A stretch of DNA of 64,000 nt. It comes from a phage. This document shows, in pieces, positions 1,110-62,712 of this stretch (the first letter of the stretch is position 1; each line of letters begins with the position of its first letter). The stretch lies in the sequence record NC_042307.1; one strand, written 5' to 3'. The position numbers and the translations under genes were made by a program. The notes under the pieces are model-generated. The model was not told the DNA's origin. It worked only from the letters and a program-made list of their open reading frames with translations, and ran no database searches.

Positions 1110-1183
1110 AATAAAATTCCTCCTATGAAGTAATATTATAACAAAATTTTCGAAAGTGTGCAAGTGAAATTTTTATATTTGAA

Positions 1184-3401: not shown

Positions 3402-4015
3402 TAACTACCTCTCTTATCTTCGTTAAGAGCAGCTCCCAGTGTTTCCATAATTGCATCTTCTAGACTTCCATGCTTACTAGGATTGCTTAAGTGAGTAACG
3501 TAGATGGGATTCCTAGAAACTCCAGAGTCCACAGGCGCTACGCTTTTCATGTCAGATTCAAAAGCTTCTTGAGTATGTTTCAACTGTGCAGATGGTCCAT
3601 AATCTTCACCAACTCGATATGAGGAATTATTTTCTATGACGCCACCACACGGAACATTGTGCAAATCCGACGTTGTTTTAGGACTGTTCCACATTGTAAT
3701 TGGCCCTGACTGCCACGGATCCCGAATAGTTACTGGAGTACTAGGGCGGTTCACCTCAGTCTTCACGAGTTTATAACCAGCATCTATTAATGCATTAATA
3801 AGGTTATCAGCTGGAATGCGAGCCTTGCCAAAAATCTTACGAGCGTTGTTGAGCTTACCTTCAAAATCTTTACATGCTTTAATATTAGTGTGTGCAAAGG
3901 TTAGCTTCATAGATTTGAATTGTACAGTGGCAGTTAAATCTTTGAAGCTATAATCCCACGTATTCAGTTCATGATCTGGTACTACTTGAATAGATTGTTG
4001 TGCATATAAAGTCAT
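3401..4015 (-). CDS. hypothetical protein (204 aa)
   Basis: ORF; start overlaps stop of upstream gene. Confidence 0.5.
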   Translation of the reverse strand: MTLYAQQSIQVVPDHELNTWDYSFKDLTATVQFKSMKLTFAHTNIKACKDFEGKLNNARKIFGKARIPADNLINALIDAGYKLVKTEVNRPSTPVTIRDPWQSGPITMWNSPKTTSDLHNVPCGGVIENNSSYRVGEDYGPSAQLKHTQEAFESDMKSVAPVDSGVSRNPIYVTHLSNPSKHGSLEDAIMETLGAALNEDKRGS

Positions 4016-7050: not shown

Positions 7051-7328
7051 TTTTTAATCTCCGTGATTATCTGTGTACGCATTACTTTAGCAGGTAATTT
7101 ATTATTCCCAACTATTGCTTCTATATTATTTAATTTTTCCTTAAGAATATCCGAGCGTCTTTGGGCTATTTCAATATCTTGCTCTTGCTCTAGCAAGCGG
7201 TGGTGTAGTCCATCATTAGTAATAAGCATACTTTCCATGTTTTTTCGTGCGTTTATAATCCCAATAACTCCACCAATCGCTACTAGTGTAGTAAGAACTA
7301 GTAACCCAATAAGAATTTCTGTAATCAT
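7047..7328 (-). CDS. membrane-anchored coiled-coil protein (93 aa)
   Basis: N-terminal TM 'ILIGLLVLTTLVAIGGVIGI' then charged helix. Confidence 0.4.
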   Translation of the reverse strand: MITEILIGLLVLTTLVAIGGVIGIINARKNMESMLITNDGLHHRLLEQEQDIEIAQRRSDILKEKLNNIEAIVGNNKLPAKVMRTQIITEIKK

Positions 7329-7861
7329 TTATTTAATTCCTCTAAAGTAGGTAAGGGTTTTGTATGATCAAAAGTTTCTATAACAGCGTTAGACCCATGT
7401 AGTTCTAAACGTAGTTCATTAGCTCTTTGAACCGCTAATTCTAGATCTAAGAAATCAAAATACCCACCATGTACTAACTTTTTGTATGAATCTACAACCC
7501 TTACTTCCCATTTTTGCTTTTGTTTATGCCAAAAGATTCCCAAATACCCTGATTTGCTCCTTGCTGTTCTATTTCTAGAATTTTCTTGGTTGTTAGACTC
7601 TCTAAGGTTAGCCCACCTATTATCACTCCGTATACGATTTACGTGGTCTATTACTTCGGGAATATAACCTTCCATATAGAGGAAGGCTAGTCGATGTGCT
7701 TTGTAACCTACTTTATCTACTCTTATTTCTATATACCCAGTCTTTCTTAGACAGCCAGCAATACTACCAGCTTTTTGATTACCTATACTTACTAATCTAA
7801 TAAACTCGCCCGTTTCCGGGCGGTATTCCAATAATTCTTTTAATCTTTCTTGTGTTATCAT
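7325..7861 (-). CDS. HNH homing endonuclease (MITQERLKEL family)
   Basis: Motifs 'EVIDHVNRIRSDNRWANLRESNNQEN'; paralog of ORFs at 14934, 31921, 56828. Confidence 0.7.
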   Translation of the reverse strand: MITQERLKELLEYRPETGEFIRLVSIGNQKAGSIAGCLRKTGYIEIRVDKVGYKAHRLAFLYMEGYIPEVIDHVNRIRSDNRWANLRESNNQENSRNRTARSKSGYLGIFWHKQKQKWEVRVVDSYKKLVHGGYFDFLDLELAVQRANELRLELHGSNAVIETFDHTKPLPTLEELNK

Positions 7862-8133
7862 TTTTTCTTTAATTGCTTAACTTCACGCTCAAAGCTAGCT
7901 GCTCGGCGTTCTGCCACTGCTTGATGCTCCTTAGCAAAGCGTGCCTCTTGTTTTGCTAAGTTAAAGGCCATAGCGTTCTTGTTAAGAGAATCGTACATCT
8001 TTTTCATTGCTGGGATGGACATTTTCATCAGTTGCCCCTCAAATCCTTGCATGTCGAGGAAAATTGCTAATACATTGGCCATTTCAGTCTTGGTAAGGTT
8101 AGAGGCGTCGAAGTCTTTAGTCATGTTTTCCAT
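7858..8133 (-). CDS. hypothetical protein
   Basis: ATG 8133 preceded by GAGAGAGGAAA RBS. Confidence 0.45.
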   Translation of the reverse strand: MENMTKDFDASNLTKTEMANVLAIFLDMQGFEGQLMKMSIPAMKKMYDSLNKNAMAFNLAKQEARFAKEHQAVAERRAASFEREVKQLKKK

Positions 8134-10541: not shown

Positions 10542-10832
10542 TTAATCTTCTGGATTATCATCCAGGAAGTTTTTAATAGCTTCGTGCATAGTTTCCTTAC
10601 GAAGCTGACGTCCAATCAAAATATGATTAGCTTCTATTCGACCATTAGGTAAGCGATCTGCCAGAACTACTACAGGTACTTGACGTACACCAAATTTCTG
10701 CATTAATTCTGTATTATCAGTCTCTTTATGGATTTCCAAATTATAGTCATTGACTACTTTATCAAATACTGGCTCAAACATTTTGCAAGGATTGCAAGTA
10801 GAACCTTTCAATAGATATACTAATTTACTCAT
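10542..10832 (-). CDS. thioredoxin/glutaredoxin-like protein
   Basis: Redox 'CNPC' motif near N-terminus, about 96 aa. Confidence 0.5.
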   Translation of the reverse strand: MSKLVYLLKGSTCNPCKMFEPVFDKVVNDYNLEIHKETDNTELMQKFGVRQVPVVVLADRLPNGRIEANHILIGRQLRKETMHEAIKNFLDDNPED

Positions 10833-11355
10833 TATTTAAATCCTCAATACTTGGAATAACTCCATTAAATACCTCTAAAACAGCACGCTCTCCGTGTAGT
10901 TTTTGTCTTAAAGTATTGGCTGATTTAACTGCCAATTCTAAATCTTTATGTTCAAAGCGCCCGCCGGATATACTTTCTCCATTTGAGTTCACGACGTAGA
11001 CTTGCCACTTACCTCGATTCCATGAAACTCCTAAATAGCCGGATTTACTCCATGCTTTCCTATTTCTTAGATTTTCCTGTTTAGTAGCATTACGAATATT
11101 ACACCACCTATTATCATAGGTTATGCGATTTTCATGGTCCATCTCATGCTCTGGCCATTCTCCAGTCATGTATAGACATGCTAATTGCTGCGCATAATAA
11201 GGGCGTTTATTAACGGTTATTCTAATGTATCCATCTTTAGTGAGTGTTCCTGCTATATCCCCCCTCTTTTTCGGTCCTCTACTTACTTTCCATGTAAAGA
11301 TTCCCGTTTCAGGGTCGTAATTGAACATCTGTTTAAGAGTATCCTGTGTAATCAT
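10825..11355 (-). CDS. HNH homing endonuclease
   Basis: 'HEMDHENRITYDNRWCNIRNATKQEN' motif. Confidence 0.65.
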   Translation of the reverse strand: MITQDTLKQMFNYDPETGIFTWKVSRGPKKRGDIAGTLTKDGYIRITVNKRPYYAQQLACLYMTGEWPEHEMDHENRITYDNRWCNIRNATKQENLRNRKAWSKSGYLGVSWNRGKWQVYVVNSNGESISGGRFEHKDLELAVKSANTLRQKLHGERAVLEVFNGVIPSIEDLNNE

Positions 11356-11780
11356 AGTTTATTAATAGCTTCTAAGAAGTTTTTCATGCACTTAACAGTT
11401 GCGGTGCTCAGATCAAGATTTACACCCAAACACTCGGTTAATGCTTCCTGATAAGGAGCCTTTAATCTGCCTTCTGGGACTTCTACCTTCTTATATTCTT
11501 TATTTTGGACCTTTTTAATCATAGTCTCTAGTACAAGAAGTGGTAATTTAGCACCTTCAATATCAGTACCCAAAAGTTCAGCTAAAATTTTATTAAGATC
11601 AAGACGAGTTAACTTTTTGCCCTTAGACATAGATGCACCTACCTTTGTATCAATAGATTTTCCCGCTTTCTTTTCGAGCTTTTTGTACTCAGGAGAGTCA
11701 TGATCACGGAGTGCAATGTTTAGCTCGTAATGTGGTATACGAAAATGTTCCGCCATTTGAGTGTAGAAACGATCAGACAT
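11352..11780 (-). CDS. hypothetical protein (142 aa)
   Basis: ORF. Confidence 0.45.
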   Translation of the reverse strand: MSDRFYTQMAEHFRIPHYELNIALRDHDSPEYKKLEKKAGKSIDTKVGASMSKGKKLTRLDLNKILAELLGTDIEGAKLPLLVLETMIKKVQNKEYKKVEVPEGRLKAPYQEALTECLGVNLDLSTATVKCMKNFLEAINKL

Positions 11781-14184: not shown

Positions 14185-14937
14185 TTACCCCACTAGTGGT
14201 TCTAGCTCTGAGTCACAGAAGTTATACACTTCTAGTGTGAGGTTATAGATACCATCGGGTGTATTAGCTAATTCGTGAGTGATATATTTTGCAGGAATAC
14301 CACTTTCAGATGGATGATCTGATTTAATAGTGAACTTCTGCTCAGCGGGCACTACATTTACTAGTAAAGAATCCATATCTAAATGGTTCGTTTCTCTGAG
14401 TAACTCTCCTTCATTGGGGAATCTCACATCTGTTATTACGGCGACATCTGGGTCGTCTTTAGCGATGGATTGCTCCAGAATTATGAGCCAAATGCGTTCA
14501 TGTACCAGCTGCCTTCCTAGCTCTGTTCCTACGAGCTGTAACATTTTTCTTGGAGAAATAAATAAACTATAAAGTCCGTCTTCTTTATTCTCTGAGATAA
14601 GTTGTTGAGGATTAAGATATTTTTCCTCAAAAATCGGCCAAAGGTACGAGAAGTCTTCAAACTTATCGATACCGTATTTAAACCATACGTCTCTAGCTCG
14701 CTCCAACTGAGATTGTGTGACTGTAAACCATTGGTCAATCTCTTTCCCTCTGCGCTCTCCTAGAAACTCTGGAGTTACACCGAGGATTACGGATGCAAGT
14801 TCATAAACGGGCTTAGCAAAACTGTAACGACGGGATAAACACGTTGGATACGTGTCATTACACCAATCGATAATTAATTTTGCAACGGTATCTTTTCCTG
14901 CACCTGCCCCGCCATGTAAACCTACTAGTACGCTCAT
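14185..14937 (-). CDS. dnk: deoxynucleoside-5'-monophosphate kinase (T5 Dnk-like, 250 aa)
   Basis: P-loop 'GGAGAGKDT'; size matches T5 enzyme. Confidence 0.6.
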   Translation of the reverse strand: MSVLVGLHGGAGAGKDTVAKLIIDWCNDTYPTCLSRRYSFAKPVYELASVILGVTPEFLGERRGKEIDQWFTVTQSQLERARDVWFKYGIDKFEDFSYLWPIFEEKYLNPQQLISENKEDGLYSLFISPRKMLQLVGTELGRQLVHERIWLIILEQSIAKDDPDVAVITDVRFPNEGELLRETNHLDMDSLLVNVVPAEQKFTIKSDHPSESGIPAKYITHELANTPDGIYNLTLEVYNFCDSELEPLVG

Positions 14938-15470
14938 TTATTAAGTTCCTCTAAAGTTGGTAAAGATTTTGTAGAATCAAAAGTTTCTACAACAGCATTT
15001 TCACCATGCAACTGTAAACGAAGTTCATTGGCTCTTTTAACTGCCAACTCTAAATCTAGGTATCTAAAGGAGCCTCCATACATATTAGTACCTCTAAAAT
15101 TAGCAACATTTACTTCCCACTTCTGGTCACGTTTCCTCCAGCTAATTCCTAGATAACCAGATTTACTTCTAGTAGCTTTATTTCTCTGGTTTTCTTGATT
15201 ATTAGACTCTCTAAGATTTACCCAACGATTGTCGCTCCTTACGCGGTTTATGTGATCTACCATCTCAGGAGTATAGCCCTCCATATAAAGGAATGCTAGC
15301 TGATGTGCCAGGTAGGGTTTTCCATCTACCTTTATTTGTATATATCCATCTTTCCTAAGTGTACCTGCGATATTACCAGCTTTTTGATTACCAACAGCCA
15401 CTAACCTAATAAATAATCCAGTATCAGGGTTATATTCAAGTAATTCCTTTAATCTTTCTTGTATTACCAC
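14934..15470 (-). CDS. HNH homing endonuclease (MVIQERLKEL family)
   Basis: Paralog of 7325..7861. Confidence 0.7.
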   Translation of the reverse strand: MVIQERLKELLEYNPDTGLFIRLVAVGNQKAGNIAGTLRKDGYIQIKVDGKPYLAHQLAFLYMEGYTPEMVDHINRVRSDNRWVNLRESNNQENQRNKATRSKSGYLGISWRKRDQKWEVNVANFRGTNMYGGSFRYLDLELAVKRANELRLQLHGENAVVETFDSTKSLPTLEELNK

Positions 15471-15471
15471 A

Positions 15472-15825
15472 TTAATCTTTCCTATTGTTAATTGGTGGAT
15501 AATATACTAAACAACGTTTTTCTTGCAAATCTTGGCGGTAGAAGCAAACCATACTTGTCAGTCGTGAGATATATGAATATTCTGCCTCGCGGCATTTTGC
15601 CAACATATTCCAATCTTTATATGGTACGACTACTAGTACGCCATCCTCCCCATTTGTAGCTAATTTCTTTTCAAACTTAAAGTCAAAGCTACAAGGTTGA
15701 AGTCCTTTAGGCCAGTCCACATGAGCTGTTGGTAGTTCATGGGTAGGTTCTGGCTTTATTTCTTGTGCACAGCCTGTGATTGTGATTGCGGCTGCGAGCA
15801 GTATTCCAAGTTTTATTTTGTGCAT
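15472..15825 (-). CDS. lipoprotein (possible o-spanin or exclusion lipoprotein)
   Basis: Signal peptide with lipobox 'ITGC'. Confidence 0.5.
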   Translation of the reverse strand: MHKIKLGILLAAAITITGCAQEIKPEPTHELPTAHVDWPKGLQPCSFDFKFEKKLATNGEDGVLVVVPYKDWNMLAKCREAEYSYISRLTSMVCFYRQDLQEKRCLVYYPPINNRKD

Positions 15826-19005: not shown

Positions 19006-19331
19006 TTCAGATCCTTTTCATTAATTAAAATATTTGTAAATAATGGGGTATTCCCCAAGCACATGGTAGGGCCAAATGTATTCATGGCTACCCATAACTG
19101 CATGGTTATCATACCGTCTTTAATCGCCGGATCTTTATACTCCTCGATACGTTTCTTGGCAAAAGCAACTATGTCTGGATTATTTTTATTTTCCTGAATA
19201 TAGTCATGCCAAAACTGGGTATTCTCACTACGTAGGAATGTTAAAATATCCTTAGTTGCTGGAATCTGCACTGTGCTGTTGATGTTTAGTCTTTTCACGT
19301 TCTTCTCTCTGTTATTCTTTAGGAAACCCAT
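19002..19331 (-). CDS. hypothetical protein (109 aa)
   Basis: ORF. Confidence 0.4.
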   Translation of the reverse strand: MGFLKNNREKNVKRLNINSTVQIPATKDILTFLRSENTQFWHDYIQENKNNPDIVAFAKKRIEEYKDPAIKDGMITMQLWVAMNTFGPTMCLGNTPLFTNILINEKDLK

Positions 19332-19821
19332 TAAACTCTTCGATGACTGCTAGAGTTCCGTGCAATTCTAATCGTAATCCATTAGCTTTGTATACTGCAG
19401 ATTCTAAGTCTTCATAATCGAATAGACCACCGTAAACTCTAATACCTTCGTTATTATTAGTATAAACTCTCCATTTCTGGAGATGAGTATCCCAAGATAC
19501 TCCTAAGTATCCCGAATTGCTAGTAGCAGTCCTATTTCTATTATTTTCCTGCCTAGAACTATCTCTGAGATTACTCCACCTATTATCATCCCTAATTCTA
19601 TTGATATGATCAACAAATTCAGGAATATACCCTTCCATAAACAAGAAGGCTAATCTATGCGCTAGTTCCCTGTGTCCATCTCCAACTCTAATCTGAATAT
19701 ACCCATAGTTATTAGGCTTATTATTTATAGGTTTTATTCTACCACTTTTTAGACGTCTAGAAAATAATCCTGTTTCTGGATCATATATCAGCAGTTCTTT
19801 TAACCTTTCTTGTGTAATCAT
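19312..19821 (-). CDS. HNH homing endonuclease
   Basis: 'EFVDHINRIRDDNRWSNLRDSSRQEN'. Confidence 0.7.
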   Translation of the reverse strand: MITQERLKELLIYDPETGLFSRRLKSGRIKPINNKPNNYGYIQIRVGDGHRELAHRLAFLFMEGYIPEFVDHINRIRDDNRWSNLRDSSRQENNRNRTATSNSGYLGVSWDTHLQKWRVYTNNNEGIRVYGGLFDYEDLESAVYKANGLRLELHGTLAVIEEFNGFPKE

Positions 19822-20114
19822 TCTTCCATCTCAATATCACAGTCGTAACGGCAAGTGAAGGAATCTGAATTGTTCGAACGCTGGGTAGTAATATTACCAT
19901 TACGGTGAATAGTTACTGCCGGTGTAGAGAAATTTTTGTTAGTGTATACCTCTACTTTGCCATTACGTTCCTTAACATCACGCACTTTACCATACTCAGT
20001 GATAATGCCGTTCTGTTGTATCCTAACACTACCATTTTTCATAAAAACTTTGGTAGATGCCAGAGAACCGAAACTAACTGCGGAGATCATCAGTGCAATA
20101 ATAAACTTATTCAT
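19818..20114 (-). CDS. secreted protein with signal peptide
   Basis: ATG 20114 with GGAGG RBS; 'MNKFIIALMISAVSFGSLAS'. Confidence 0.45.
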   Translation of the reverse strand: MNKFIIALMISAVSFGSLASTKVFMKNGSVRIQQNGIITEYGKVRDVKERNGKVEVYTNKNFSTPAVTIHRNGNITTQRSNNSDSFTCRYDCDIEMEE

Positions 20115-24954: not shown

Positions 24955-25608
24955 TTTAAGTATTTTTAAGAACTCTCGTAAAAACCCTTAAAAATACAGA
25001 CGATACCGGGAGAGTCATAAGTCTCACTCATTAAGTATTTCAAGACAAAATACAGTAACGTCTATTATTTTCCAGTTTAAGTCAAGGTGACTTAGTGGTT
25101 ATGTCCTGCGGTATACTGAGGACTCGGTTAAGTTAGGGTCATGACTCCCCACCTTTTTGCTGCTACTCAACAGGAGTTATCGCGAATTACCTGTGCTATT
25201 GTGCACCATTAGTGGCATCTCTCATGCCATCATTTCCCACTCTCATATTCACGCGGTCTGTTAGAATCGCACCTCCGATTTTCGATGCGAAGCTGGATGC
25301 CTAGTCTCAAGTTAAACGGGGTACACACTAGGCAGTGATCCCGAGTTCCGAGTTTGGTTGAGGCCGTCAGGTTTCCTCGTGGTTTAGCTGTTTCGATTCT
25401 AACCTAATACTGATCAGGCGGCGTACCTCCTGAACCGTCATAGTATGTACTCCAGCAGCGAATGCTTATCCGGTATAAGCCCCGAGTTATCTGATTCTTT
25501 CCGACCGCAGGATTCGAACCTGCATCTTCCACCAGTTACGGTTTGATATTACCGTTTATACTAGGACGGCAGTGTTATCACATAAGTCAGTTCGACACCC
25601 CACTATTA

Positions 25609-26091
25609 CTAACCAAAGTTAGTAAATTCTTTATGTAAGGATTCTCTTAATATCTTAGAGGCCTCGAAAGCCTCTTCCGCAGTTTTAAACCCTCTTTTAC
25701 TGTAATTTTTTCCTTCATGTCTTACTTGGTATCTCCAGGAAGAGCCTTCCCAACTTACTCCTTTGTACCCAGAAGTATTATTGCATTGTTGGTTTCTATT
25801 CGCATTATTTTGCGATCTAGAGGCGTCCCTTAGATTATTTTTCCTATTATTTCTAGGATTAGTATCCTTATGATCTACTTCTTCAGGCCTATATCCATAG
25901 TACATAATAAATAATAAGACATGCAGTTGATAGGTGTCGCCCTGAAATCCCACATCTGGATGTGATTTCTTATTATTGGCACAACACTCTTTCAAACCTT
26001 TCTTTGTTTTCCTATATAGTATCCCATTATCAGGATCAGCTACAAAATATTTTTCAAGTATTTCTTTAGTAGGGTATTCTTTCCTTTTCAT
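25609..26091 (-). CDS. HNH homing endonuclease (F-Tfl-like, adjacent to tRNA cluster)
   Basis: 'EEVDHKDTNPRNNRKNNLR'. Confidence 0.6.
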   Translation of the reverse strand: MKRKEYPTKEILEKYFVADPDNGILYRKTKKGLKECCANNKKSHPDVGFQGDTYQLHVLLFIMYYGYRPEEVDHKDTNPRNNRKNNLRDASRSQNNANRNQQCNNTSGYKGVSWEGSSWRYQVRHEGKNYSKRGFKTAEEAFEASKILRESLHKEFTNFG

Positions 26092-26134: not shown

Positions 26135-26578
26135 TTAATTAAATTCGCCAGCAACCTGAGCAGCAATGCCACCGTCGTAACGACCAGGAAACTCTTCCTT
26201 AATCGCTTTCATCAGCATACCCTTTGTAATCCCAGGATTCAGCTTAACTAATTCTGCGAAGTATTTGCGAATCTCAGAATCAGATAGCTGAGGAGGCAAA
26301 TACTGCTGTAACCACTTATTTAGAATGTATTCATACTGAGCGGACTGCAAGCTATAACTATCAAGATCTTGACCATGAAGTTTAGCTTTCGTCTGGTTAA
26401 TGCTTTTTAGTTGAGCTTTGAGATAAGACACAAATTGTTCAGAAGTGATGAAATCTTTATCAATACGCTGAAGATCCCCGATTATGGTCTGATAGCTTTT
26501 AGCGACTTCTTTATCAGAACCATTAAACTTAGAATCCTGCAAAGCTCTACGCAAAACATCTAAAATATTCTCTTCCAT
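26135..26578 (-). CDS. hypothetical protein, possibly GatB/YqeY-like
   Basis: Weak recall of YqeY-type helical protein. Confidence 0.3.
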   Translation of the reverse strand: MEENILDVLRRALQDSKFNGSDKEVAKSYQTIIGDLQRIDKDFITSEQFVSYLKAQLKSINQTKAKLHGQDLDSYSLQSAQYEYILNKWLQQYLPPQLSDSEIRKYFAELVKLNPGITKGMLMKAIKEEFPGRYDGGIAAQVAGEFN

Positions 26579-27278: not shown

Positions 27279-28100
27279 TTAAAATAGATCATATTCTAAT
27301 CTATTGGGATTTTCTCGGTATCCATAAGACGTAAGAGTACCCCTCATATACTCTGCGTCAACAGGATTAGATGTTACTAGAACCACTTTTAGTGGTCTTT
27401 GACCTAAAAATAGTATATGATCTAATAAGTCTTTTCCTTGTACCTCTGGATCTCCTAAATCTGAGTCCATAAATAAATAGGATCCTGTGAAACTAAATAT
27501 ATCTGATAGCTCCAGCGCACCTATAACTGTACGACAAATAATGGACATTTCAGGTAGATCTCTAACATCGTCTATTAGAATATTGGTCTGCTTCCCAATT
27601 TCTGCATTACATAAACCATTTACTAGTTTTTCTCTTTCCCCTTTAGCTTGTTCGAAAGTGGTGAAGCCAGGAGATACGAAAAACTTTCCACCTAATGTAA
27701 TGCTATACACAAAACCCTCGGGGAGGAGTTCTACACCTACGGTTTTATTAGTATTAATCCTATTTAACTTAAAATTTGTCTCTCTTAGATTAATAATTCT
27801 GTTATCCCACGGTATAGTATTTATATGGTCGATCATATAAGGCGGCTCTTCACCATAATGGAGCAACCACGCTATTCGGTGTCCATAAATAATTGTGGGT
27901 TTATTATCTAAGAGCAAACTAACTCTGATGTACCCATCAGAGTTCTTACTACATATTTCTCTCCCAGCATATAGGGTGTGCCAAGTTTTATTCTTGTATT
28001 TATTAGGCCTATAAAATAATTTACCGGTATAAGGATTATACTCTATAATTTCTCGAATATAATCTATATATGGTAGTATTTGTTTTTGTAATTTACCCAT
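27279..28100 (-). CDS. HNH-like N-terminal domain fused to unknown C-terminal domain
   Basis: 'GHRIAWLLHYGEEPPYMIDHINTIPWDNRIINLRE' then about 120 aa with 'ILIDDVRD...LFMDSDLG...VVLVTSNP'. Confidence 0.5.
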   Translation of the reverse strand: MGKLQKQILPYIDYIREIIEYNPYTGKLFYRPNKYKNKTWHTLYAGREICSKNSDGYIRVSLLLDNKPTIIYGHRIAWLLHYGEEPPYMIDHINTIPWDNRIINLRETNFKLNRINTNKTVGVELLPEGFVYSITLGGKFFVSPGFTTFEQAKGEREKLVNGLCNAEIGKQTNILIDDVRDLPEMSIICRTVIGALELSDIFSFTGSYLFMDSDLGDPEVQGKDLLDHILFLGQRPLKVVLVTSNPVDAEYMRGTLTSYGYRENPNRLEYDLF

Positions 28101-28542
28101 AATAGCCTCGTTTCATCAATTTAAAAATATATTATACAGATAACTTAATAAATTAGCAAATACATTTTTAAATTGTGAAACTAGTAAACCGATAAACAGC
28201 CTAGAGGCGCCACAGGCCATATCTTATGAGCCATGTACCTTTGATCTAGGGTTTGAATCATCAACGAATACTTTGCATCTTTTAGCTTTAGAAGTTTAGA
28301 AGTTTGAGTTCTTTAAACTTTTCAGCTTTCATACTTAAATGTTGATCTTTGAAGTTGTGTCGGTAATATCAACGACGCTTTGTTCTTACGTGTCAGCTTA
28401 AAAGGCTGGTGTAATAAACATAATCTCCAATAGATTATACTTTATAGTATGGTCAGCGGTCTTATTTAACCTCGTATTTCAACCGCTGCTGCGAGGTAAG
28501 ATGCTTGGGCTTTCGTCTACCGATTTACTAGCTTTTAAATTA

Positions 28543-29486: not shown

Positions 29487-30188
29487 TCAAATTTTGATTT
29501 TTTCGACCATAGCTGCAACACAATAGCTCTCAACTAAGGCATCGAATGCTGGGTCATGTTTAACTGGGTAGATTCCATAACGAATGGTGTCCATCTTCTC
29601 CATCTTAGCTTTTGCCCAGCTAGCACCTTCGGCTTCTAGATCTTTATAGCTATAACCAGCTTGCATCCACTGATTACGGAAAGATCGAACGTTACCTAAG
29701 TTCCAGAATTTCCACGGAACTATTTCTTCATGGGTTCCGGCATGGAACGTATTTGCAGAGTAGATTGTCATATCAAACTCTGGGCCATTGCCATAATACA
29801 AAGCATTCTCTCCTAGAGCCAACTCCATAATGTTTTGAGCCATAGAGTAAGCAGCATAATTAGAGCCGAGTTTATTAGTACAATGATGTTTACCGTTTTG
29901 GAATGCAATCAGTTTTGGATTACGTTCCTTCATAGCTTCCATTATGTGAATAGCAGAGGGGCTATTTTTAGCTTGATCCATCCAGAATGCTAGAGTAGAT
30001 GCTGTAACTTTGGCACCAGAATTAAGCTGATCCTGCACATCCAAAGTAACAAACACTAGATCAGGATCTTTATCAATTCCGTGCATAGCCACAAAAGCGA
30101 AAGAAGGCATTACGATATGAGTAGTACCACAATCTCCCGGAGTTCCTAGAGATTCAATATCTAACATACCAAATGGTTTTACTTTCAT
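29487..30188 (-). CDS. putative DnaQ/DEDD-like 3'-5' exonuclease
   Basis: N-terminal 'MLDIESLG'. Confidence 0.4.
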   Translation of the reverse strand: MKVKPFGMLDIESLGTPGDCGTTHIVMPSFAFVAMHGIDKDPDLVFVTLDVQDQLNSGAKVTASTLAFWMDQAKNSPSAIHIMEAMKERNPKLIAFQNGKHHCTNKLGSNYAAYSMAQNIMELALGENALYYGNGPEFDMTIYSANTFHAGTHEEIVPWKFWNLGNVRSFRNQWMQAGYSYKDLEAEGASWAKAKMEKMDTIRYGIYPVKHDPAFDALVESYCVAAMVEKIKI

Positions 30189-31447: not shown

Positions 31448-31924
31448 TCACATCTCAGCCATTTCAGCTTCAGTAATAACTGTGTTACACAATGCATCTA
31501 CAGCTTCATTACCACTAATACCAGAATGTCCTTTAACCTTAATAAAGGTAGGGTTAGTATTATGAAAGTTGATATACTGCTGTGTTAATTTAAATGCTTC
31601 CTGCCAAAGTTCTAGATTAAGAGGAACTTCACCATCTGCTTTCTTCCAGCCTTTCCTTTGCCAAGAAAACATCCAACTTTCCATACCATTTTTGCAATAA
31701 GCAGAATCAGTATAGATAACAATTGGCCTATTATCTTTTTTAACTGACCAACGTAGAGCCTCTACAATAGCCGTGAGTTCCATCTCATTATTTGTAGTTT
31801 TAGGACTATATCCAGATTTAGAACCTAAACGATCGTCGTTATCATCATAGACAATAAAACCCCAAGCACCGGGACCTGGGTTAGACTTACAAGCACCATC
31901 TGTGTAAATGTGGAATGTACTCAT
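31448..31924 (-). CDS. rnh: ribonuclease H (RNase HI-like)
   Basis: 'IYTDGAC..NPGPGAWG', 'YTDS'. Confidence 0.7.
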   Translation of the reverse strand: MSTFHIYTDGACKSNPGPGAWGFIVYDDNDDRLGSKSGYSPKTTNNEMELTAIVEALRWSVKKDNRPIVIYTDSAYCKNGMESWMFSWQRKGWKKADGEVPLNLELWQEAFKLTQQYINFHNTNPTFIKVKGHSGISGNEAVDALCNTVITEAEMAEM

Positions 31925-32466
31925 TTATTAAGATCCTCTAAGGTAGGATAATAGTTATTATAAAATGTTTCTTCTACAGCATCTTTACCATGTAACTCAT
32001 GTCGCAAGGTATTTGCTTTTAATACGGCGTTCTCTAAATCTAGATATTCGAATATTCCACCATAAATATTCTTACCCTCACTATTTATTATCTGTACTTG
32101 CCACTTTTGTAGCTGCTTATTCCAATGTACTCCTAAGTACCCTGATTTGCTAGAGGCAGTGCAGTTTCTATTATTAATTTGACTAGTAGATTCTCTTAAA
32201 TTTTTCCATCTATTATCTGACCGTATACGATTTATATGATCTACTAAGTCAGGAATACTTCCTGTCATATACAGAAATGCCAGTCTATGGGCTAGATAAT
32301 CTACCTTATCTATTTTTATAGTTATATAACCATCTTTTCTTAAATAGCCAGCAACTGCTCCGGCTTTACCTCCCCTACCTCTACTTATTTTATTAGTAAA
32401 TATTCCAGTATCGGGATCATAATTTAGAAGTTCTTTTAATCTCTCTAGTGTCGGTTGTTTACTCAT
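31921..32466 (-). CDS. HNH homing endonuclease
   Basis: 'DLVDHINRIRSDNRWKNLR'. Confidence 0.7.
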   Translation of the reverse strand: MSKQPTLERLKELLNYDPDTGIFTNKISRGRGGKAGAVAGYLRKDGYITIKIDKVDYLAHRLAFLYMTGSIPDLVDHINRIRSDNRWKNLRESTSQINNRNCTASSKSGYLGVHWNKQLQKWQVQIINSEGKNIYGGIFEYLDLENAVLKANTLRHELHGKDAVEETFYNNYYPTLEDLNK

Positions 32467-35594: not shown

Positions 35595-36017
35595 TTAAGT
35601 ATATTTTACACCTTTACGGGCTATCTGTACCTGGTAAGATCCGCTAGCTTTTGGATGAATATTTTTAATACCTAACTTATTATCTTTATGCGCCCCGACA
35701 TTCTTTCCGTTACTGAATCTATCAGAAGCTACTAGGTTAATAGCTCTATTATCATGTCGTATTCTATTGTCGTGGTCTACTTCAGGTGGCAGATACCCAT
35801 GAATTTTAGCAAAGATTACCCTATGTGCTAAGTAGGGGTATCCTTTAATATTTAATACTATATATCCTGTAGATTTATCTAAGGAGCCTGCTGGTTTTCC
35901 GGCATATTTGGTATTAAATGTTTTATTATCTCTAGGTCTATGAGTTAATATTCCAGTATATGGATCATAATCAAATAATTTAGCTACCTCTAGATGATCT
36001 TCTAATGTTTTTGACAT
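35595..36017 (-). CDS. HNH homing endonuclease inserted between nrdA and nrdB
   Basis: 'PEVDHDNRIRHDNRAINL'; ATG 36017. Confidence 0.6.
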   Translation of the reverse strand: MSKTLEDHLEVAKLFDYDPYTGILTHRPRDNKTFNTKYAGKPAGSLDKSTGYIVLNIKGYPYLAHRVIFAKIHGYLPPEVDHDNRIRHDNRAINLVASDRFSNGKNVGAHKDNKLGIKNIHPKASGSYQVQIARKGVKYT

Positions 36018-36082
36018 AATTATAATTTCCAACCAATTAGTATAAAAAATAAGAGGGTTATAATTAACCCTCTTTACTAGTT

Positions 36083-38410
36083 TTATAAGGTACAGCCACC
36101 TGAAGAACATCCTGTAGTTTCTCCAGCTCCTCCACCATTCGCAGTGTTAAAGTTAGCATAATACCAGGTTTTTATACCATACTTAACCGCAGTCATAAAG
36201 TCACGAACTACTACTGGGCCAGGGATGATTTCATTCTCGAATTTAGAGTAATCATAATACATCTGGAAACTTGATGACTGACTCAAGAATTTTTGGTAAA
36301 CGGCGTTCCATTTGATCCACTCAGTGCGATCAATATCATAAGCTAGTTTATAGCTCATTAACGTTTCCCAGTCGGTTGCACCTGGAGCAATTGCAATTAC
36401 TTTATTTACTGCACTACCTTTGATAGATACAATCTTACGAGGTGGTTCGATAGAGTTAGTAACACCTAACAGAACAGAAGAACTTTCTCCCGGCATCTGA
36501 GCAGTCAGAACAGAGTTACGCATACCATATTTCAGAATATCTGCACGCAGAGACTCCCAATCCATTTCTAGACCTACGGATACCAGTTCATCAACAGTTT
36601 TCTTGTACGTGTCGATTACCAGAGTTCCTTTAGATGGTTTAGTACGATCGAACCATTCACATGCACCTTGCTCTTTGGCTAGACGTACAGAGGCTTTATG
36701 CAGGAAGTAGGACAATTTTTCAGCTTCACGATGAATCCAGTTACGAGCCTCAATACCTTCATAAGCCAGACCTTCTGCTGCCATTGCACCTGCTGCGTTC
36801 ATCAGACCAATACCAACGTTACGACGTTTCTTAGCCGTATATTCCATAGTTGGGAACGGGTAATCCTGAATTTCAATGATGGTATCAACAAATTTCAGAA
36901 GAATATAGCAAGTCTTTTCCCACTCAGCCAGAGATTCCATGCGTCCTAATACAACACCACCTAAGTTACACAGAGATACTTCCCCAATATCCTCCGGCTT
37001 CATTTGATCGAGTTGTTCTTTTGTTTTATACAGTTCCGTGATATGATGGAACGGGCGTGTAGGCTGAGTAATTTCAACACAAAGGTTGGTCATACGAATC
37101 GGGTCAAGGAAGTTACCATGACGGTTAGATTCACCAATGTGATGAGCATACATACGCCCTGTTTCCATACGGATACGTAACCAAGTATCTAGGATTTCTT
37201 TTGCAGAGATTCTAGGAGCTGCTGGAATTGTTTTTCCTTCGTGGTCGGTCTTTGTAAGAGATGCCACACGTTTCTCCGCTGCCACGTAGATTTCTTCAAA
37301 CTTAGCCTCATCTTCACCATAAAACGCTTCATGAACTTCTGGTGCGTAGAAGTAGGACATTAGCGTAATATCTTCGTTTTTCAGGTAACGTTTTAACAGA
37401 AGGTTGTTAAAGCTCAGAGAATAATCCATCTTATCGATTTTATTCTCGTCTGTAGCACGTTGCTGCTTAACCTGCATCAACTGAATGATTTCAGGATCGA
37501 AGTATGGATAAGACACAGTAGCAGAACCGCCACGGGTTTGCTGAGTGTTAGCTTTTACTGAACGGTCAATGTGTCGATAATATGGCAGTTTTCCGGAATG
37601 CGGGAATGCCCCATTTCGCACCGGATCAGCAATTGATCGGCTTTCAAGATGATACCCGATTCCCGCTCTGGCTGCGACCATTTTGAAGACGATGTGCTCG
37701 GCTGTGTCGATTGAATCCAACGTGTCAGTGGAATCCACGAGGCAGCAACTAGCAAATCCACGGTCACTAGAACGCAAACCAACCAGTGGCGGCGTAGGAA
37801 CGTTGATTTTGTGGAGCGACATTGCATTGTAGAGATCGATTGCATCTAGAATTGTCCAGTTGGGTTGAGATAACATCGCCATTGCCATGCCCATATAGGC
37901 AAATTGCGGGGTTTCGTAAATTTCACCAGTGGCTATATTACGACGGGAATATTTATCAAAGAACTGTTTCAGTCCACCACTAGTAAAAAGACGGTCACGA
38001 TCGTGGTCTATAACCTGATTCAGAGCTTCAAATTGCTCATCGGTAATCCATGCACTCATGTCTTCCCATGCACCTACACTAACCATATGATCGTGGAAGA
38101 AGCGTAGAGAAGGTGGTTCGAAGGAATCATAAAGGCGTTTACGCATCTGCGCAAGACGTAATTCCTTTGCTGGCACGTCGTATGCTGGATTATCTTTAAT
38201 AAGACTTTCGGCAGCTTTAATTAACGCATCCATCAGAGTATCGGAATCTACAACCCCTTTAGGCAGAGTTTTTTGAGCAGCCATAGTAATGGCAGACCAA
38301 CTTACATCAACTGTTTTGCAACCATACTCTGCCCAACCATTGAGTTTTTCAGGAGCAAAGTCTTCTACAGTACCGTCACGTTTAATTACTTTTTCAATGC
38401 GATGGCTCAT
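36083..38410 (-). CDS. nrdA: ribonucleotide reductase large subunit NrdA
   Basis: ATP-cone N-terminus, 'CNLG', C-terminal Cys pair; ATG 38410 with AAGGA RBS. Confidence 0.8.
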   Translation of the reverse strand: MSHRIEKVIKRDGTVEDFAPEKLNGWAEYGCKTVDVSWSAITMAAQKTLPKGVVDSDTLMDALIKAAESLIKDNPAYDVPAKELRLAQMRKRLYDSFEPPSLRFFHDHMVSVGAWEDMSAWITDEQFEALNQVIDHDRDRLFTSGGLKQFFDKYSRRNIATGEIYETPQFAYMGMAMAMLSQPNWTILDAIDLYNAMSLHKINVPTPPLVGLRSSDRGFASCCLVDSTDTLDSIDTAEHIVFKMVAARAGIGYHLESRSIADPVRNGAFPHSGKLPYYRHIDRSVKANTQQTRGGSATVSYPYFDPEIIQLMQVKQQRATDENKIDKMDYSLSFNNLLLKRYLKNEDITLMSYFYAPEVHEAFYGEDEAKFEEIYVAAEKRVASLTKTDHEGKTIPAAPRISAKEILDTWLRIRMETGRMYAHHIGESNRHGNFLDPIRMTNLCVEITQPTRPFHHITELYKTKEQLDQMKPEDIGEVSLCNLGGVVLGRMESLAEWEKTCYILLKFVDTIIEIQDYPFPTMEYTAKKRRNVGIGLMNAAGAMAAEGLAYEGIEARNWIHREAEKLSYFLHKASVRLAKEQGACEWFDRTKPSKGTLVIDTYKKTVDELVSVGLEMDWESLRADILKYGMRNSVLTAQMPGESSSVLLGVTNSIEPPRKIVSIKGSAVNKVIAIAPGATDWETLMSYKLAYDIDRTEWIKWNAVYQKFLSQSSSFQMYYDYSKFENEIIPGPVVVRDFMTAVKYGIKTWYYANFNTANGGGAGETTGCSSGGCTL

Positions 38411-42960: not shown

Positions 42961-43159
42961 GAATGTAAAACACCTTAAATATCGCTTAATTTACAACGGA
43001 CGTATGGAAACAGAAGACCTAGCTCAATTAGCTATTAATTCTAATGAGGTCACGGTACGTGCGTTAGCTATTGAAAAGTTGCGGGCTTCTTATGAAAGTC
43101 GTATTATGGAACTAGAGGAGAAACTTTATGGCATTCTCGAAGCCGATGCTACCCGATAA
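42953..43159 (+). CDS. hypothetical protein (68 aa)
   Basis: ATG 42953 overlapping upstream stop. Confidence 0.35.
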   Translation: MTKNVKHLKYRLIYNGRMETEDLAQLAINSNEVTVRALAIEKLRASYESRIMELEEKLYGILEADATR

Positions 43160-43349
43160 TGGCTTAAATGCTGCGCTGGAAAATGCATTGATGCAGCAGT
43201 GGGAGGCTGGATATAAGGATGGGGTTGAATCTTGTGCAAAAATAATGGATATTATGGCTAATTCTGTAGTTGGGAAAGCCCATCCAGAAGTATCTGATAT
43301 ACTCCATAACCTTAGTAAAAACTTCAGAGAGCAGGTGAAAAATGCGTAG
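43128..43349 (+). CDS. hypothetical protein (73 aa)
   Basis: ORF. Confidence 0.35.
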   Translation: MAFSKPMLPDNGLNAALENALMQQWEAGYKDGVESCAKIMDIMANSVVGKAHPEVSDILHNLSKNFREQVKNA

Positions 43350-44166
43350 ATTAATTATTATTAGTGGTGCAGGTTTGAGCGTTGAAAGTGGTGTACGAGC
43401 CTTCCGTACTGATACTGCTAGTGGTAAAGCATTGTGGGATGATTATGACTTAGAAGAGGTATGTAATATTCATGCCTTTCGTGGTAGCTTTTACCACAAA
43501 ACTCACGAGTTCTACAACAAACGTCGTGAAGAGTTAGAAACTGTTGAACCCAATCTTGCACACTTGCGTATTGGTGAGTGGTATAAACAATACCCAGGTC
43601 AAGTAGTAAACTTGACTACCAACGTTGATGACCTTATTGAGCGTGCTGGTGTTCCGCATAGTGACATTCTACATATTCATGGGTATTTAAAAGAGGTTGT
43701 TGTAGCTGACAGCTACAATAGCAGTAATAAACGAGTTATTGATGTTGGGTATAGCTCTATTGACCCGGATGATTATAAATGGGTTAAACCTAATGTAATC
43801 TTCTTTGGGGAGCATGCTCCAGCGTACGCAGAAATGTACAATATTTTTGATGGTATTACTAGTCAAGATATGATAGTTGTAGTTGGTTGCTCTAACCAAG
43901 TAATTAATTTCTACTGGGAATTATTTCCTATTCTTAACCGTACTGCTGCGAAACTTATGGTAGTTAACTACTATGATAGTGCCCTAGCGGCAGAACCAGG
44001 CTATCAAGGTATGACTCGTAGTGATATGTACCAACTGGAAGATCGTGGTATTCCTTACTGGAGTAAAGGTGCGGTAGATGCTTTCAGTGACCCTGGTTTT
44101 ATCGCTCGTGTAGAAGCTCATCTAGAGGGTAGACCTTATATGCCGGGGAAACAGACATGTCCATAG
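43342..44166 (+). CDS. Sir2-like NAD-dependent deacylase/ADP-ribosyltransferase family protein
   Basis: 'IIISGAGLSVESGVRAFR' NAD-binding motif. Confidence 0.6.
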   Translation: MRRLIIISGAGLSVESGVRAFRTDTASGKALWDDYDLEEVCNIHAFRGSFYHKTHEFYNKRREELETVEPNLAHLRIGEWYKQYPGQVVNLTTNVDDLIERAGVPHSDILHIHGYLKEVVVADSYNSSNKRVIDVGYSSIDPDDYKWVKPNVIFFGEHAPAYAEMYNIFDGITSQDMIVVVGCSNQVINFYWELFPILNRTAAKLMVVNYYDSALAAEPGYQGMTRSDMYQLEDRGIPYWSKGAVDAFSDPGFIARVEAHLEGRPYMPGKQTCP

Positions 44167-45665: not shown

Positions 45666-45804
45666 TTTTTATTAGCTGAACTTTGTAATCCGGGCTATTA
45701 GTGCTCGGATTATTACATAATCTTTTCAGTCGATTGATAGTCAAAATAAATTGTCGTTGACAATTTGGATGGATTATGTAATAATATATGTATTGGAGGT
45801 GAGG

Positions 45805-46257
45805 ATGTCATTCACACAGCAAGAACTTTTAGATAACTTCCGGTATGAAGAGGGTAAGTTATTTAGAACTACAGGAAGAAATGCAGGGAAAGAATGTTGT
45901 GTTTCTACGGGTAACGGATATTATCGTATATCTCTAGGGAATAGGACTATGCTTCGGCATAGAGCAATATTTTTAATGCATCATGGATACTTACCTGATT
46001 TAGTAGACCATGTGAATACTATAAAAGGTGATGATCGTATTGAAAATCTTAGAGAGCAGACAGTATCCGGTAATCTAAGAAATATCAAATATAAGAAAGG
46101 AATGCATGTTTACCCTTCTGGTAGTAAGAACTGGCAAGTGGTATTTACTATTAACCGTAAACGTATAGTTAAAGGAACATATGACAACTATGAGGTTGCA
46201 TGTTCTATGGCCAAGATGTTTAGAGGTCAATTATACGGTAGGGAATCAATCCAGTAA
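45805..46257 (+). CDS. HNH homing endonuclease
   Basis: 'HRAIFLMHHGYLPDLVDHVNTIKGDDRIENLR'; ATG 45805 with GGAGGTGAGG RBS. Confidence 0.6.
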   Translation: MSFTQQELLDNFRYEEGKLFRTTGRNAGKECCVSTGNGYYRISLGNRTMLRHRAIFLMHHGYLPDLVDHVNTIKGDDRIENLREQTVSGNLRNIKYKKGMHVYPSGSKNWQVVFTINRKRIVKGTYDNYEVACSMAKMFRGQLYGRESIQ

Positions 46258-49580: not shown

Positions 49581-49792
49581 AAAATGGGAAACAAGGAAGT
49601 TTCCAGTAAAAGAACGTAAAGTTCCTGTTTATGATACTTCGGAGAAGCTATGTAGGGTGGTTCCTGCTAGACTAGCATCCATAAATGGCATAGGCGCATG
49701 GTTGCTAAAGCAGAGAAAGCAAAGCATATCATTACGTATATCTTTTGAGTTAGACCAAATCTATAGAGAATTGGGAGAATTGATTAAAGAAA

Positions 49793-50251
49793 ATGATAAC
49801 ACAGGAAGAGGTTAGAGAGGCTTTTGAGTATGATCCTGAAACAGGCCATCTTAAATGGAAGAAAACAAGACAGAAGAGTCTAGTAGGTAAGTTTGCCGGT
49901 GGTAAACATAAAGGGTATATAAGAATAGGGTTTAAGCGTAGGCACTGGGGAGAACATCAGCTGGTATTCTTATATCATAAGGGGTACATACCAGAAGAGA
50001 TAGACCACAAAAACAGGATTAAAGATTGCAACTTTATAGAGAATTTAGAAGACTCCAATAGATCTAAGCAAATGCACAATATTAATGTACGTAAAGACAA
50101 TAAGTTGGGTGAGCCTAATATCTACATGAGGGGCGATAAATATTGTGTGCTAATGCAGAAAGGATCTATTCGTAAGTACCAGCAGTGCAATACTATAGAA
50201 GAGGCTAAAAAAGTTAGGGCTAATTTTAAGTCCGAACTCTATCCAAATTAA
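49793..50251 (+). CDS. HNH homing endonuclease
   Basis: 'EEIDHKNRIKDCNFIENL'. Confidence 0.55.
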   Translation: MITQEEVREAFEYDPETGHLKWKKTRQKSLVGKFAGGKHKGYIRIGFKRRHWGEHQLVFLYHKGYIPEEIDHKNRIKDCNFIENLEDSNRSKQMHNINVRKDNKLGEPNIYMRGDKYCVLMQKGSIRKYQQCNTIEEAKKVRANFKSELYPN

Positions 50252-62711: not shown

Positions 62712-62712
62712 C

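Follow-up and report, generated by a model that had tools for sequence, protein, structure and literature searches.

A fused open reading frame in a T5-like phage

Why should a phage gene that encodes an HNH nuclease carry on, in the same reading frame and with no stop codon in between, into a domain of quite another kind? The open reading frame (ORF) that raises this question lies on the minus strand at 27279..28100 of the window, a 64-kb stretch (64,000 nt) of phage record NC_042307.1. The phage is T5-like (family Demerecviridae); the 3 kb around the gene are 98% identical to Salmonella phage Shivani and Shigella phage SHSML-45, and the ORF itself is a 100% match to an ORF of Salmonella phage vB_Sen_SG_WM_RUS_R2. 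Comparison of the sequences makes it fairly probable that the gene is a mobile homing-endonuclease cassette, in which an HNH/AP2-type endonuclease gene has been joined, without a break in the reading frame, to a much diverged copy of a cREC (cyclic-phosphate processing receiver) gene. We refer to the fusion as HNH-cREC; its parts and expression signals are as follows.

27279..28100, minus strand: whole HNH-cREC ORF (822 nt), uninterrupted from an ATG start, 273 aa plus stop; the mobile cassette
27588..28100, minus strand: homing-endonuclease module, aa 1-171 (phrog_99 at aa 11-163; alignment with 12 paralogues)
27780..27884, minus strand: HNH_3 catalytic motif, aa 73-107 (GHR...IDHIN...WDNRIINLRE; Pfam PF13392)
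27594..27746, minus strand: probable AP2-like DNA-binding element and linker helix, aa 119-169 (predicted secondary structure)
27282..27587, minus strand: cREC domain, aa 172-273, by sequence a diverged T5.084 orthologue
28131..28159, minus strand: predicted sigma-70-type promoter (TTGCTA, 17 nt, TATAAT; consensus scan, 10/12 matches)
28106..28109, minus strand: Shine-Dalgarno sequence GAGG, 5 nt upstream of the ATG (read from the sequence)

Two family collections divide the protein in the same way. Pfam assigns PF13392 (HNH_3) to aa 73-107 (E 2.3e-11, 43.6 bits, cut-off 24.8) and PF20274 (cREC_REC) to aa 173-257 (E 1.8e-12, 48.2 bits, cut-off 27; 51.0 bits when scanned alone), the latter match being full-length, i.e. 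spanning positions 2-87 of the 88-position model. In PHROGs, aa 11-163 fall to phrog_99 (HNH endonuclease) and aa 170-263 to phrog_1479, a family of unknown function. NCBIfam and PADLOC scans of HNH-cREC returned zero matches. The original prediction, made from the letters of the sequence, had proposed an HNH_3 signature in the N-terminal part and a loosely receiver- or Rossmann-like C-terminal region, and the two Pfam matches bear out both. Its description of the C-terminal domain as uncharacterised holds for the biochemistry of the family, but the domain is not anonymous, as it already bears the name cREC_REC.

The neighbours of the gene are typical of the T5 early region. On the same strand, genes for an Rv2179c-like exonuclease and a T5.085-like protein lie upstream, and those for a SleB-like hydrolase, a DUF7616 protein, a YqeY/GatB-like protein and another HNH protein lie downstream, together with tRNA genes.

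The nuclease half

In size and motif pattern, residues 1-171 match a complete, free-standing HNH endonuclease. Twelve further HNH_3 paralogues lie in the window, all free-standing and 155-190 aa long; because none of them is extended at its C-terminus and the window has no second cREC, the fusion is unique among the HNH genes of the window, just as had been claimed. In an L-INS-i alignment, H74, D91, H92, N100, N104 and N113 of HNH-cREC are conserved in at least 10 of the 13 paralogues, and the residues of the beta-beta-alpha-metal site (the His general base in 'DH', the Asn in 'DNR' and in 'NLR', and the distal Asn) have all been kept. The catalytic and structural HNH residues are also invariant in P0001 and in P0002, a 75%-identical homologue. 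The closest HNH proteins outside the fused set are all less than 60% identical to this half (at most ~46% among the matches listed), and all of them are annotated as HNH homing endonucleases. A PDB sequence search with the HNH-cREC protein gave no significant match.

Beyond the catalytic motif, strands are predicted at residues 119-126, 129-136 and 139-142, followed by a helix at 149-169 (model pLDDT 57-74 there) that, in the predicted model, runs straight into the first strand of cREC. A GV..W.V..GG pattern is common to HNH-cREC and the window paralogues, and an HNH domain followed by AP2 is a described architecture of homing endonucleases in phages (PMC10448857). Residues 119-169 are therefore probably an AP2-like DNA-binding element with a linker helix, an assignment that draws on secondary structure, PHROG coverage, the separate L-INS-i alignment and the literature; it is put no higher than probable because the Pfam AP2 model finds no match in HNH-cREC and model confidence is low in the N-terminal half. 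Single-sequence AlphaFold prediction was uninformative (pLDDT 35). Prediction from a 90-sequence alignment produced an excellent C-terminal domain and a poor N-terminal half, the latter because the MAFFT alignment had left the HNH paralogues unaligned under the query.

The cREC half

The family PF20274 cREC_REC was defined computationally by the Aravind group, who predict that its substrates are cyclic phosphates, either at RNA ends or in ADP-ribose derivatives, which it would hydrolyse, and who call it experimentally uncharacterised (PMC7824862, PMC9503650). Elsewhere the domain is fused to other enzymes, e.g. Nudix, and NAD, sirtuin and ligase partners have been named for it (PMC9503650).

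Word-indexed protein searches, run for the full protein and for its two halves separately, found only two fused proteins or nothing. As they were silent on architecture, an exhaustive HMMER search with aa 166-273 as the query was carried out against 1.84 billion representative proteins. The 87 matches are stand-alone proteins of 98-153 aa, bar a few very long, multi-stretch proteins in which the match spans only part of the domain and looks spurious. The query's own cluster is the only 273-aa protein among them and the only fusion to an HNH domain.

All 77 aligned family members match PF20274, and every invariant residue of the family is present in the fused protein (D177, D178, R180, R190, D212, D214, G216, G222, P236, N245 and P246). 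These positions coincide with the motifs ILIDDVRD, FMDSDLGDPEVQG and KVVLVTSNP, which had been picked out beforehand from the sequence and are indeed present. The acidic residues D177, D178, D212 and D214 (the DD after strand 1 and the D after strand 3) are invariant or nearly so across the 77 members. The domain thus matches proteins such as T5.084 and the KVP40.0304-like members (Iyer et al. 2021, PMC7824862) from end to end, including the DD...D acidic site, and it sits at the orthologous phage locus, with no histidine kinase. What sets it apart from the family is the N-terminal nuclease, which HNH-cREC alone carries, nearly all of the other 86 representatives being stand-alone.

The domain has a receiver-like Rossmannoid fold, but differs from the REC/CheY-like receivers of PF00072: similarity to these is marginal (E 0.002-0.1 for the cREC profile against PDB receivers), PF00072 is matched by just 1 of the 77 family members, there is no kinase partner and the domain is shorter, at ~100 aa. 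The top PDB match of the cREC profile, the TALE repeat protein Hax3, was discarded as a repeat artefact. The surroundings of cREC are those of a phage early region that has tRNA genes, genes for a YqeY/GatB-like protein and an Rv2179c-like exoribonuclease, and no kinase.

Within the family, the cREC half of the fusion forms a separate, deep branch, 46-52% identical to the T5-type protein and to a further free-standing, Demerecviridae-like homologue, these two sharing 63% identity. Among the 1.84 billion representative proteins, no free-standing cREC is more than 55% identical to it. Judged by its sequence, this half represents a core gene that belongs to the phage itself, i.e. a diverged orthologue of T5.084, and the fusion is therefore best read as an endonuclease welded to a host gene rather than as a designed enzyme.

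Two alleles at one locus

A cREC match is found at this locus in ~443 T5-like records, which makes cREC effectively a core gene. The fused 822-nt allele accounts for 28 of these records (~6%), in which it is 93-100% identical at the DNA level. The remaining >400, T5 included (T5.084), have a free-standing cREC of ~105 aa that is ~50-51% identical to the C-terminal half of the fusion. In 27 of the 28 fused-allele records, which come from many laboratories, and in two metagenome/SRA assemblies the 822-nt ORF is intact; scans of IMG/VR and of JGI metagenomes yielded one further near-identical copy each. The only intermediate comes from a truncated record of 42 kb, which matches partially and in two pieces (67%, covering 59% of the query).

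The boundaries of the two alleles are sharp. Up to the ATG, the sequence is 94-100% identical to IrisVonRoten and T5; inside the ORF the value falls to 0-60%, and from the stop codon it returns to 90-100%, the match resuming downstream at GGAGTAA, which overlaps the ribosome-binding site (RBS) of the next gene. The alleles thus differ over exactly one interval, codon 2 through stop, in which the cassette stands in place of the resident 105-aa gene while using its promoter, RBS and ATG. A promoter upstream of T5.084 is annotated at the same position in the T5 record, and promoter and RBS are common to the fused and free-standing alleles of four lineages. Even two distant lineages, of which one has the fused and the other the free-standing allele, keep the TTGC core of the -35 element and the -10 element TATAAT unchanged; the Shine-Dalgarno sequence differs between these two.

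GAGG marks the sole translation start that can be recognised for the fusion as a whole. From the end of the endonuclease module to strand 1 of cREC, the reading frame contains no ATG, GTG or TTG, and the next methionine, M185, lies inside the domain; an internal start for cREC was accordingly rejected, as no such codon with a Shine-Dalgarno sequence precedes strand 1. The cREC domain is therefore made only as part of the fusion.

The two versions of cREC are also far apart at the DNA level, with ~53% identity between the fused and the T5-type sequence and a longest common run of 8 nt. Recombinants between the two allele classes are absent from the ~443 T5-like records, as expected from the shortness of these common runs.

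Mobility and selection

If the cassette were inherited with its surroundings, the two should be related in the same way, and they are not. Phages bux, KKP_3831 and JLBYU43 resemble the cassette-free Epseptimavirus atrejo in their flanks, which for the most part are 92-100% identical to it and match the window at only 76-90%, yet their cassette is 95-100% identical to that of the window. Conversely, T5, IrisVonRoten, SP15 and DT57C have flanks that are 96-99% identical to the window, yet they are without the cassette. In RN29, an upstream flank of Epseptimavirus type is joined to a downstream flank (SleB gene) of Tequintavirus type, as expected of a co-conversion tract. The free-standing allele, in contrast, follows its flanks, as in vertical inheritance (T5 versus atrejo, 86%). 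These comparisons show that the cassette has moved between T5-like lineages of two genera independently of its flanks.

A presence/absence polymorphism at one locus and a history discordant with the flanks are thus both found here, and such comparative signatures are the ones accepted for phage homing endonucleases (PMC2988022, PMC10448857). As the reading frame is continuous into cREC with no stop in between, however, the gene is not a 'free-standing' homing endonuclease in the strict sense.

Both parts of the cassette are complete, intact and under purifying selection. In all comparisons with enough substitutions, dN/dS is 0.04-0.2 in each half, and purifying selection spans the HNH/cREC junction. 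Between the window and HildyBeyeler, the HNH half shows 33 synonymous and 8 non-synonymous differences (omega ~0.05). The synonymous divergence of the two halves is unequal, with dS values of 0.41 and 0.10 for the window versus HildyBeyeler and of 0.21 and 0.53 for the window versus RN29, which indicates recombination among fused alleles.

The original prediction had suggested looking for the fusion in relatives, and this search succeeded: besides the 28 GenBank records, the homologue P0002, of equal length and in syntenic position, is found in a far more distant phage contig, the flanking proteins of which are ~56% identical. Its two halves have diverged equally (74.7% and 76.7% identity; dN 0.14-0.16, dS saturated), and the linker EREKLVNGLCNAEI is unchanged. 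The one interrupted copy, that of vB_EcoS_HZ_ZJUN2, is frameshifted by +2 through two extra nucleotides in a GA repeat at nucleotide 137 of the ORF. It is otherwise undamaged, and may therefore reflect a sequencing error or a very recent change.

How the cassette may spread

HNH endonucleases of T5 are documented as site-specific, and free-standing endonucleases of phages carry out intronless homing with co-conversion (PMC2330249, PMC2988022, PMC10448857). From comparative genomics, we infer a homing step in which, during mixed infection, the HNH half would nick or cut the DNA of a cassette-free phage in or close to T5.084. Candidate cleavage targets are the stretches of T5.084 that are invariant among free-standing alleles, namely nt 137-173, 43-68, 205-224 and 17-35. 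Recombinational repair from the cassette-bearing genome would then copy the whole cassette, sometimes together with flanking DNA, and the cREC half would supply the core function of the gene that has been replaced, namely the predicted resolution of 2',3'- or 1'',2''-cyclic phosphates.

Because the cREC of the cassette is only ~53% identical in DNA to the resident allele, it would lack the resident-type recognition site, rendering the cassette immune to its own nuclease. The same low identity should keep the cREC copy from recombining away from the endonuclease, so that the two halves would be inherited as one unit. Additionally, since the sole translation start precedes the endonuclease, loss of the endonuclease would mean loss of cREC expression, unless the deletion were exact and in frame.

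Several observations temper this proposal. Literature searches found no report of site-specific cleavage or super-Mendelian inheritance for this element, and the rarity of the cassette is not what a very efficient driver would give. Recombination without the help of an endonuclease could in principle also spread the cassette between co-infecting phages, and the strong constraint on the HNH half and the persistence of the fusion would fit a co-opted, cooperative function equally well.

Alternative readings

Such a cooperative two-domain enzyme is the main rival to a homing cassette, though rather unlikely in our estimation. Here, HNH/AP2 and cREC would work together and the spread of the cassette would reflect selection for their function rather than homing; the nuclease could, for example, be gated by the receiver-like domain upon binding of a cyclic-phosphate or ADP-ribose-derived ligand, or a DNA/RNA-binding module could tether a phosphoesterase to its substrate. 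Constraint on the nuclease, long persistence and low frequency sustain this possibility: dN/dS is equally low in both halves, the fusion and its linker have been kept in a 75%-identical homologue with saturated dS, the continuous helix predicted at aa 149-169 leads into strand 1 of cREC, no internal start would allow separate expression, and there is the precedent of cREC fusions to other enzymes such as Nudix (PMC9503650). Yet the fusion to HNH occurs only once among the 87 cREC representatives drawn from the 1.84 billion proteins, the N-terminal half is a complete copy of a module that 12 genes in the window carry in free-standing, selfish-type form, and >90% of the sister phages do without the nuclease part. 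HNH nucleases, moreover, leave 5'-phosphate and 3'-OH ends. As these are not the cyclic phosphates that cREC is predicted to process, there is no obvious reaction common to the two domains.

Two more specific ideas, which we regard together as doubtful, take the fusion to be more than a selfish gene parked at this site. It might be a single regulated machine in which, for example, cREC controls DNA cutting by the nuclease upon binding or hydrolysing a signal that derives from cyclic phosphates or ADP-ribose and arises in host defence, or it might embody an 'anchoring' strategy. In the latter, the endonuclease would have made itself undeletable by capturing the sole translation start of a core phage gene, and would carry a cREC copy too diverged to recombine with the resident one, as a phage analogue of a gene drive with a recoded rescue copy.

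It is more doubtful still that the gene is a domesticated or decaying remnant, with an HNH domain that no longer cuts and is kept only for the start codon that it provides to cREC, while ordinary recombination spreads the cassette. The rarity of the cassette and the frameshifted copy in vB_EcoS_HZ_ZJUN2 would agree with decay, but the catalytic residues are intact in every allele examined, the frameshifted copy shows no other damage, and a mere spacer would not stay as conserved as the HNH half, with its omega of ~0.05, has done.

The records of HildyBeyeler and SelmaRatti (MZ501074, MZ501103) annotate aa 3-171 as an intein, the splicing of which would leave a cREC protein of ~104 aa. According to the BASEL paper, comparative genomics served to identify inteins (PMC8594841), and the segment is indeed inserted in frame relative to the free-standing allele, with a threonine (Thr172) as the +1 residue. 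However, the first residue of the putative intein is Lys3 rather than Cys, Ser, Thr or Ala, its last two are Lys170-Gln171 rather than His-Asn, and no Hint or intein family is found in Pfam even at E <= 1. The HNH_3/AP2-type endonuclease fully accounts for the inserted segment and leaves no splicing domain, the N-extein would consist of just Met-Gly, and the supposed extein is ~50% diverged instead of near-identical. The junction residues and the absent Hint domain led us to reject the annotation, and splicing is very improbable.

Finally, spurious read-through with a foldless, poorly conserved C-terminal region, which the original prediction had named as the outcome that would undo it, or mis-assembly of two separate genes can practically be dismissed, as nothing beyond the single frameshifted record speaks for an artefact and against it stand the identical intact 822-nt ORF in 27 of 28 independent records and two metagenome/SRA assemblies and the purifying selection (dN/dS 0.04-0.2) across the junction.

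Relation to known systems

[quoted passage not shown] HNH-cREC has in common with them an HNH_3 motif, an inferred C-terminal DNA-binding part and a size of ~160-170 aa, as well as a presence/absence polymorphism at a fixed locus among close relatives (PMC2988022, PMC10448857), discordant histories of cassette and flanks, tracts resembling co-conversion and a phage rich in such genes. In contrast to them, its nuclease has no stop codon of its own and forms one polypeptide with the neighbouring host gene, the promoter, RBS and ATG of which it has taken over, and it travels with a ~50%-diverged copy of that gene.

Like endonuclease-bearing inteins, HNH-cREC has an endonuclease-coding segment that is inserted into the frame of a host gene and that most orthologues lack. 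Unlike inteins, it has neither a Hint domain nor catalytic junction residues, no splicing is expected, and the insertion follows codon 2 instead of interrupting a conserved active-site motif.

Organellar endonuclease ORFs fused to exons ('core creep') similarly borrow the expression signals of a host gene by in-frame fusion (PMC10448965). There, intron splicing normally removes the fused segment, or the segment lies at the 3' end of the gene, whereas the nuclease of HNH-cREC is a permanent, N-terminal part of the protein, and the host is a phage. There are also mobile elements that bring along a foreign copy of part of their target gene, e.g. in Allomyces atp6. HNH-cREC resembles elements of this type in carrying its own diverged copy of host coding sequence.

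Novelty and meaning

The gene itself is already in public records, with its two Pfam domains precomputed there, and HNH-cREC is not a new enzyme class. We found no paper that describes the HNH-cREC architecture or its mobility. What is new, in the best-supported reading, is a homing endonuclease that is neither free-standing nor intron-borne nor intein-borne, but forms a permanent fusion with a recoded version of a core host gene. For annotation, this offers a concrete reading of a gene that is publicly labelled 'hypothetical', 'HNH endonuclease' or 'intein-containing', the last of these labels being unsupported.

More broadly, the locus would provide a natural case, accessible to experiment, in which an endonuclease is joined through translation to a recoded host-gene copy. 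The design is similar to that of engineered 'cleave-and-rescue' drives and may account for the persistence of such elements in the genomes of phages. Homing is directly testable here, because the public BASEL collection contains phages with the cassette (HildyBeyeler and SelmaRatti) and without it (IrisVonRoten). Additionally, the two classes of cREC alleles, ~50% identical and with every invariant residue kept, constitute a map of the positions that matter in this family.

A structured RNA upstream of the gene

The 442-nt intergenic region upstream of HNH-cREC (28101-28542) contains no ORF of more than 34 aa, and the T5 record annotates only the promoter there. Its RNA folds far better than shuffled sequence (z = -4.8). 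The structured part, ~357 nt long, is multi-branched and closed by a long-range helix of 20 bp, in which 28534-28515 pair with 28197-28178; the corresponding stretch of T5 lies at 43,140-43,500. No Rfam family matches this RNA. A link between HNH and the RNA of the omega-RNA/IscB kind was considered and rejected, as the RNA also occurs in phages free of the HNH part and gives no HEARO match in Rfam; being present with or without the cassette, it is not part of the HNH-cREC finding. In an alignment of 10 sequences that includes two distant lineages, standard pairs occupy 95.9% of cells, and compensatory double changes are seen in 26 of 96 pairs, compared with 6.5 +/- 1.9 in shuffles (none of 500 reaching the observed number) and 2-9 in slid controls.

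A conserved structured RNA upstream of the HNH-cREC gene

The intergenic region between the T5.085-like gene and the HNH-cREC promoter harbors a conserved structured RNA that may be of greater interest than the HNH-cREC fusion itself:

28178-28534, minus strand: structured RNA of ~357 nt

Its minimum free energy has a z-score of -4.8, and in the RNAalifold consensus a 20-bp long-range stem closes a structure of 15 helices. Across the alignment, 95.9% of cells form standard pairs, and 26 of the 96 pairs carry compensatory changes; shuffles gave 6.5 +/- 1.9 and slid controls 2-9. The element occurs in cassette-bearing and cassette-free phages alike, and also in two distant lineages (locus sequences L004, 731-1157, and L019, 3534-4000). 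The region contains no ORF longer than 34 aa, the RNA matched no Rfam family and it is left without annotation in the T5 record.

RNA-related genes and a tRNA-like element nearby

Two neighboring genes match RNA-related families, and a borderline tRNA-like element lies in the same region:

25499-25570, minus strand: borderline tRNA-like element (Rfam tRNA, 29.3 bits; gathering score 29)
26135-26578, minus strand: YqeY/GatB-like gene (PF09424; phrog_1460 'tRNA amidotransferase')
29487-30188, minus strand: Rv2179c-like 3'-5' exoribonuclease gene (PF16473, 28.1 bits; cut-off 27)

Several records label the two genes 'recombination-related exonuclease' and 'metallopeptidase', but the matches are in fact to the YqeY/GatB-like and Rv2179c-like families. 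Such neighbors are consistent with the predicted RNA-end role of cREC. The tRNA-like element, in which ARAGORN called no tRNA, lies directly 3' of the HNH gene at 25609-26091 and falls in a region annotated in T5 as the stable 'RNAX', with no function assigned there; the homologous position is annotated as 'tRNA-OTHER' in phage bux and as 'tRNA-SeC(tca)' in KKP_3831.

Variants and annotation of the fused allele

Two relatives stand out at the fused locus, one for its allele and one for its flanks:

L005, 3001-3824: broken fused allele of Escherichia phage vB_EcoS_HZ_ZJUN2 (PP216084.1)
L010, around 3001-3822: mosaic flanks in Salmonella phage vB_STy-RN29

Among the fused alleles, that of vB_EcoS_HZ_ZJUN2 alone is broken: at ORF nucleotide 137, an extra GA in a GGGAGAGA repeat shifts the frame, leaving one ORF of 64 aa and another of 185 aa. 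Since its reading frame is otherwise undamaged, the frameshift either arose very recently or reflects an error in sequencing. RN29 has an Epseptimavirus-type T5.085-like gene on the upstream side (97% to the cassette-free atrejo) and a Tequintavirus-type SleB-like gene on the downstream side (96-99% to the cassette-free IrisVonRoten). The mosaic suggests that a co-conversion tract at least 450 nt long was brought in with the cassette.

In HildyBeyeler (MZ501074.1, 66243-67064) and SelmaRatti (MZ501103.1, 66172-66993), residues 3-171 of the HNH-cREC protein are labeled 'intein' with a joined mature peptide, a reading we reject because the sequence lacks any defining intein feature.

HNH_3-type genes in the window

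A further twelve free-standing genes for HNH_3-type endonucleases, each 155-190 aa long, lie within the 64-kb window, an unusually large number of homing-endonuclease-like genes. Their coordinates are mostly stop-to-stop ORF stretches, with three counted from the start codon:

633-1172, minus strand: HNH_3-type gene
7328-7876, minus strand: HNH_3-type gene
10828-11358, minus strand: HNH_3-type gene
14937-15506, minus strand: HNH_3-type gene
19315-19830, minus strand: HNH_3-type gene
25609-26091, minus strand: HNH_3-type gene
31921-32466, minus strand: HNH_3-type gene
35595-36110, minus strand: HNH_3-type gene
45721-46254, plus strand: HNH_3-type gene
49784-50248, plus strand: HNH_3-type gene
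56813-57358, plus strand: HNH_3-type gene
62689-63243, plus strand: HNH_3-type gene
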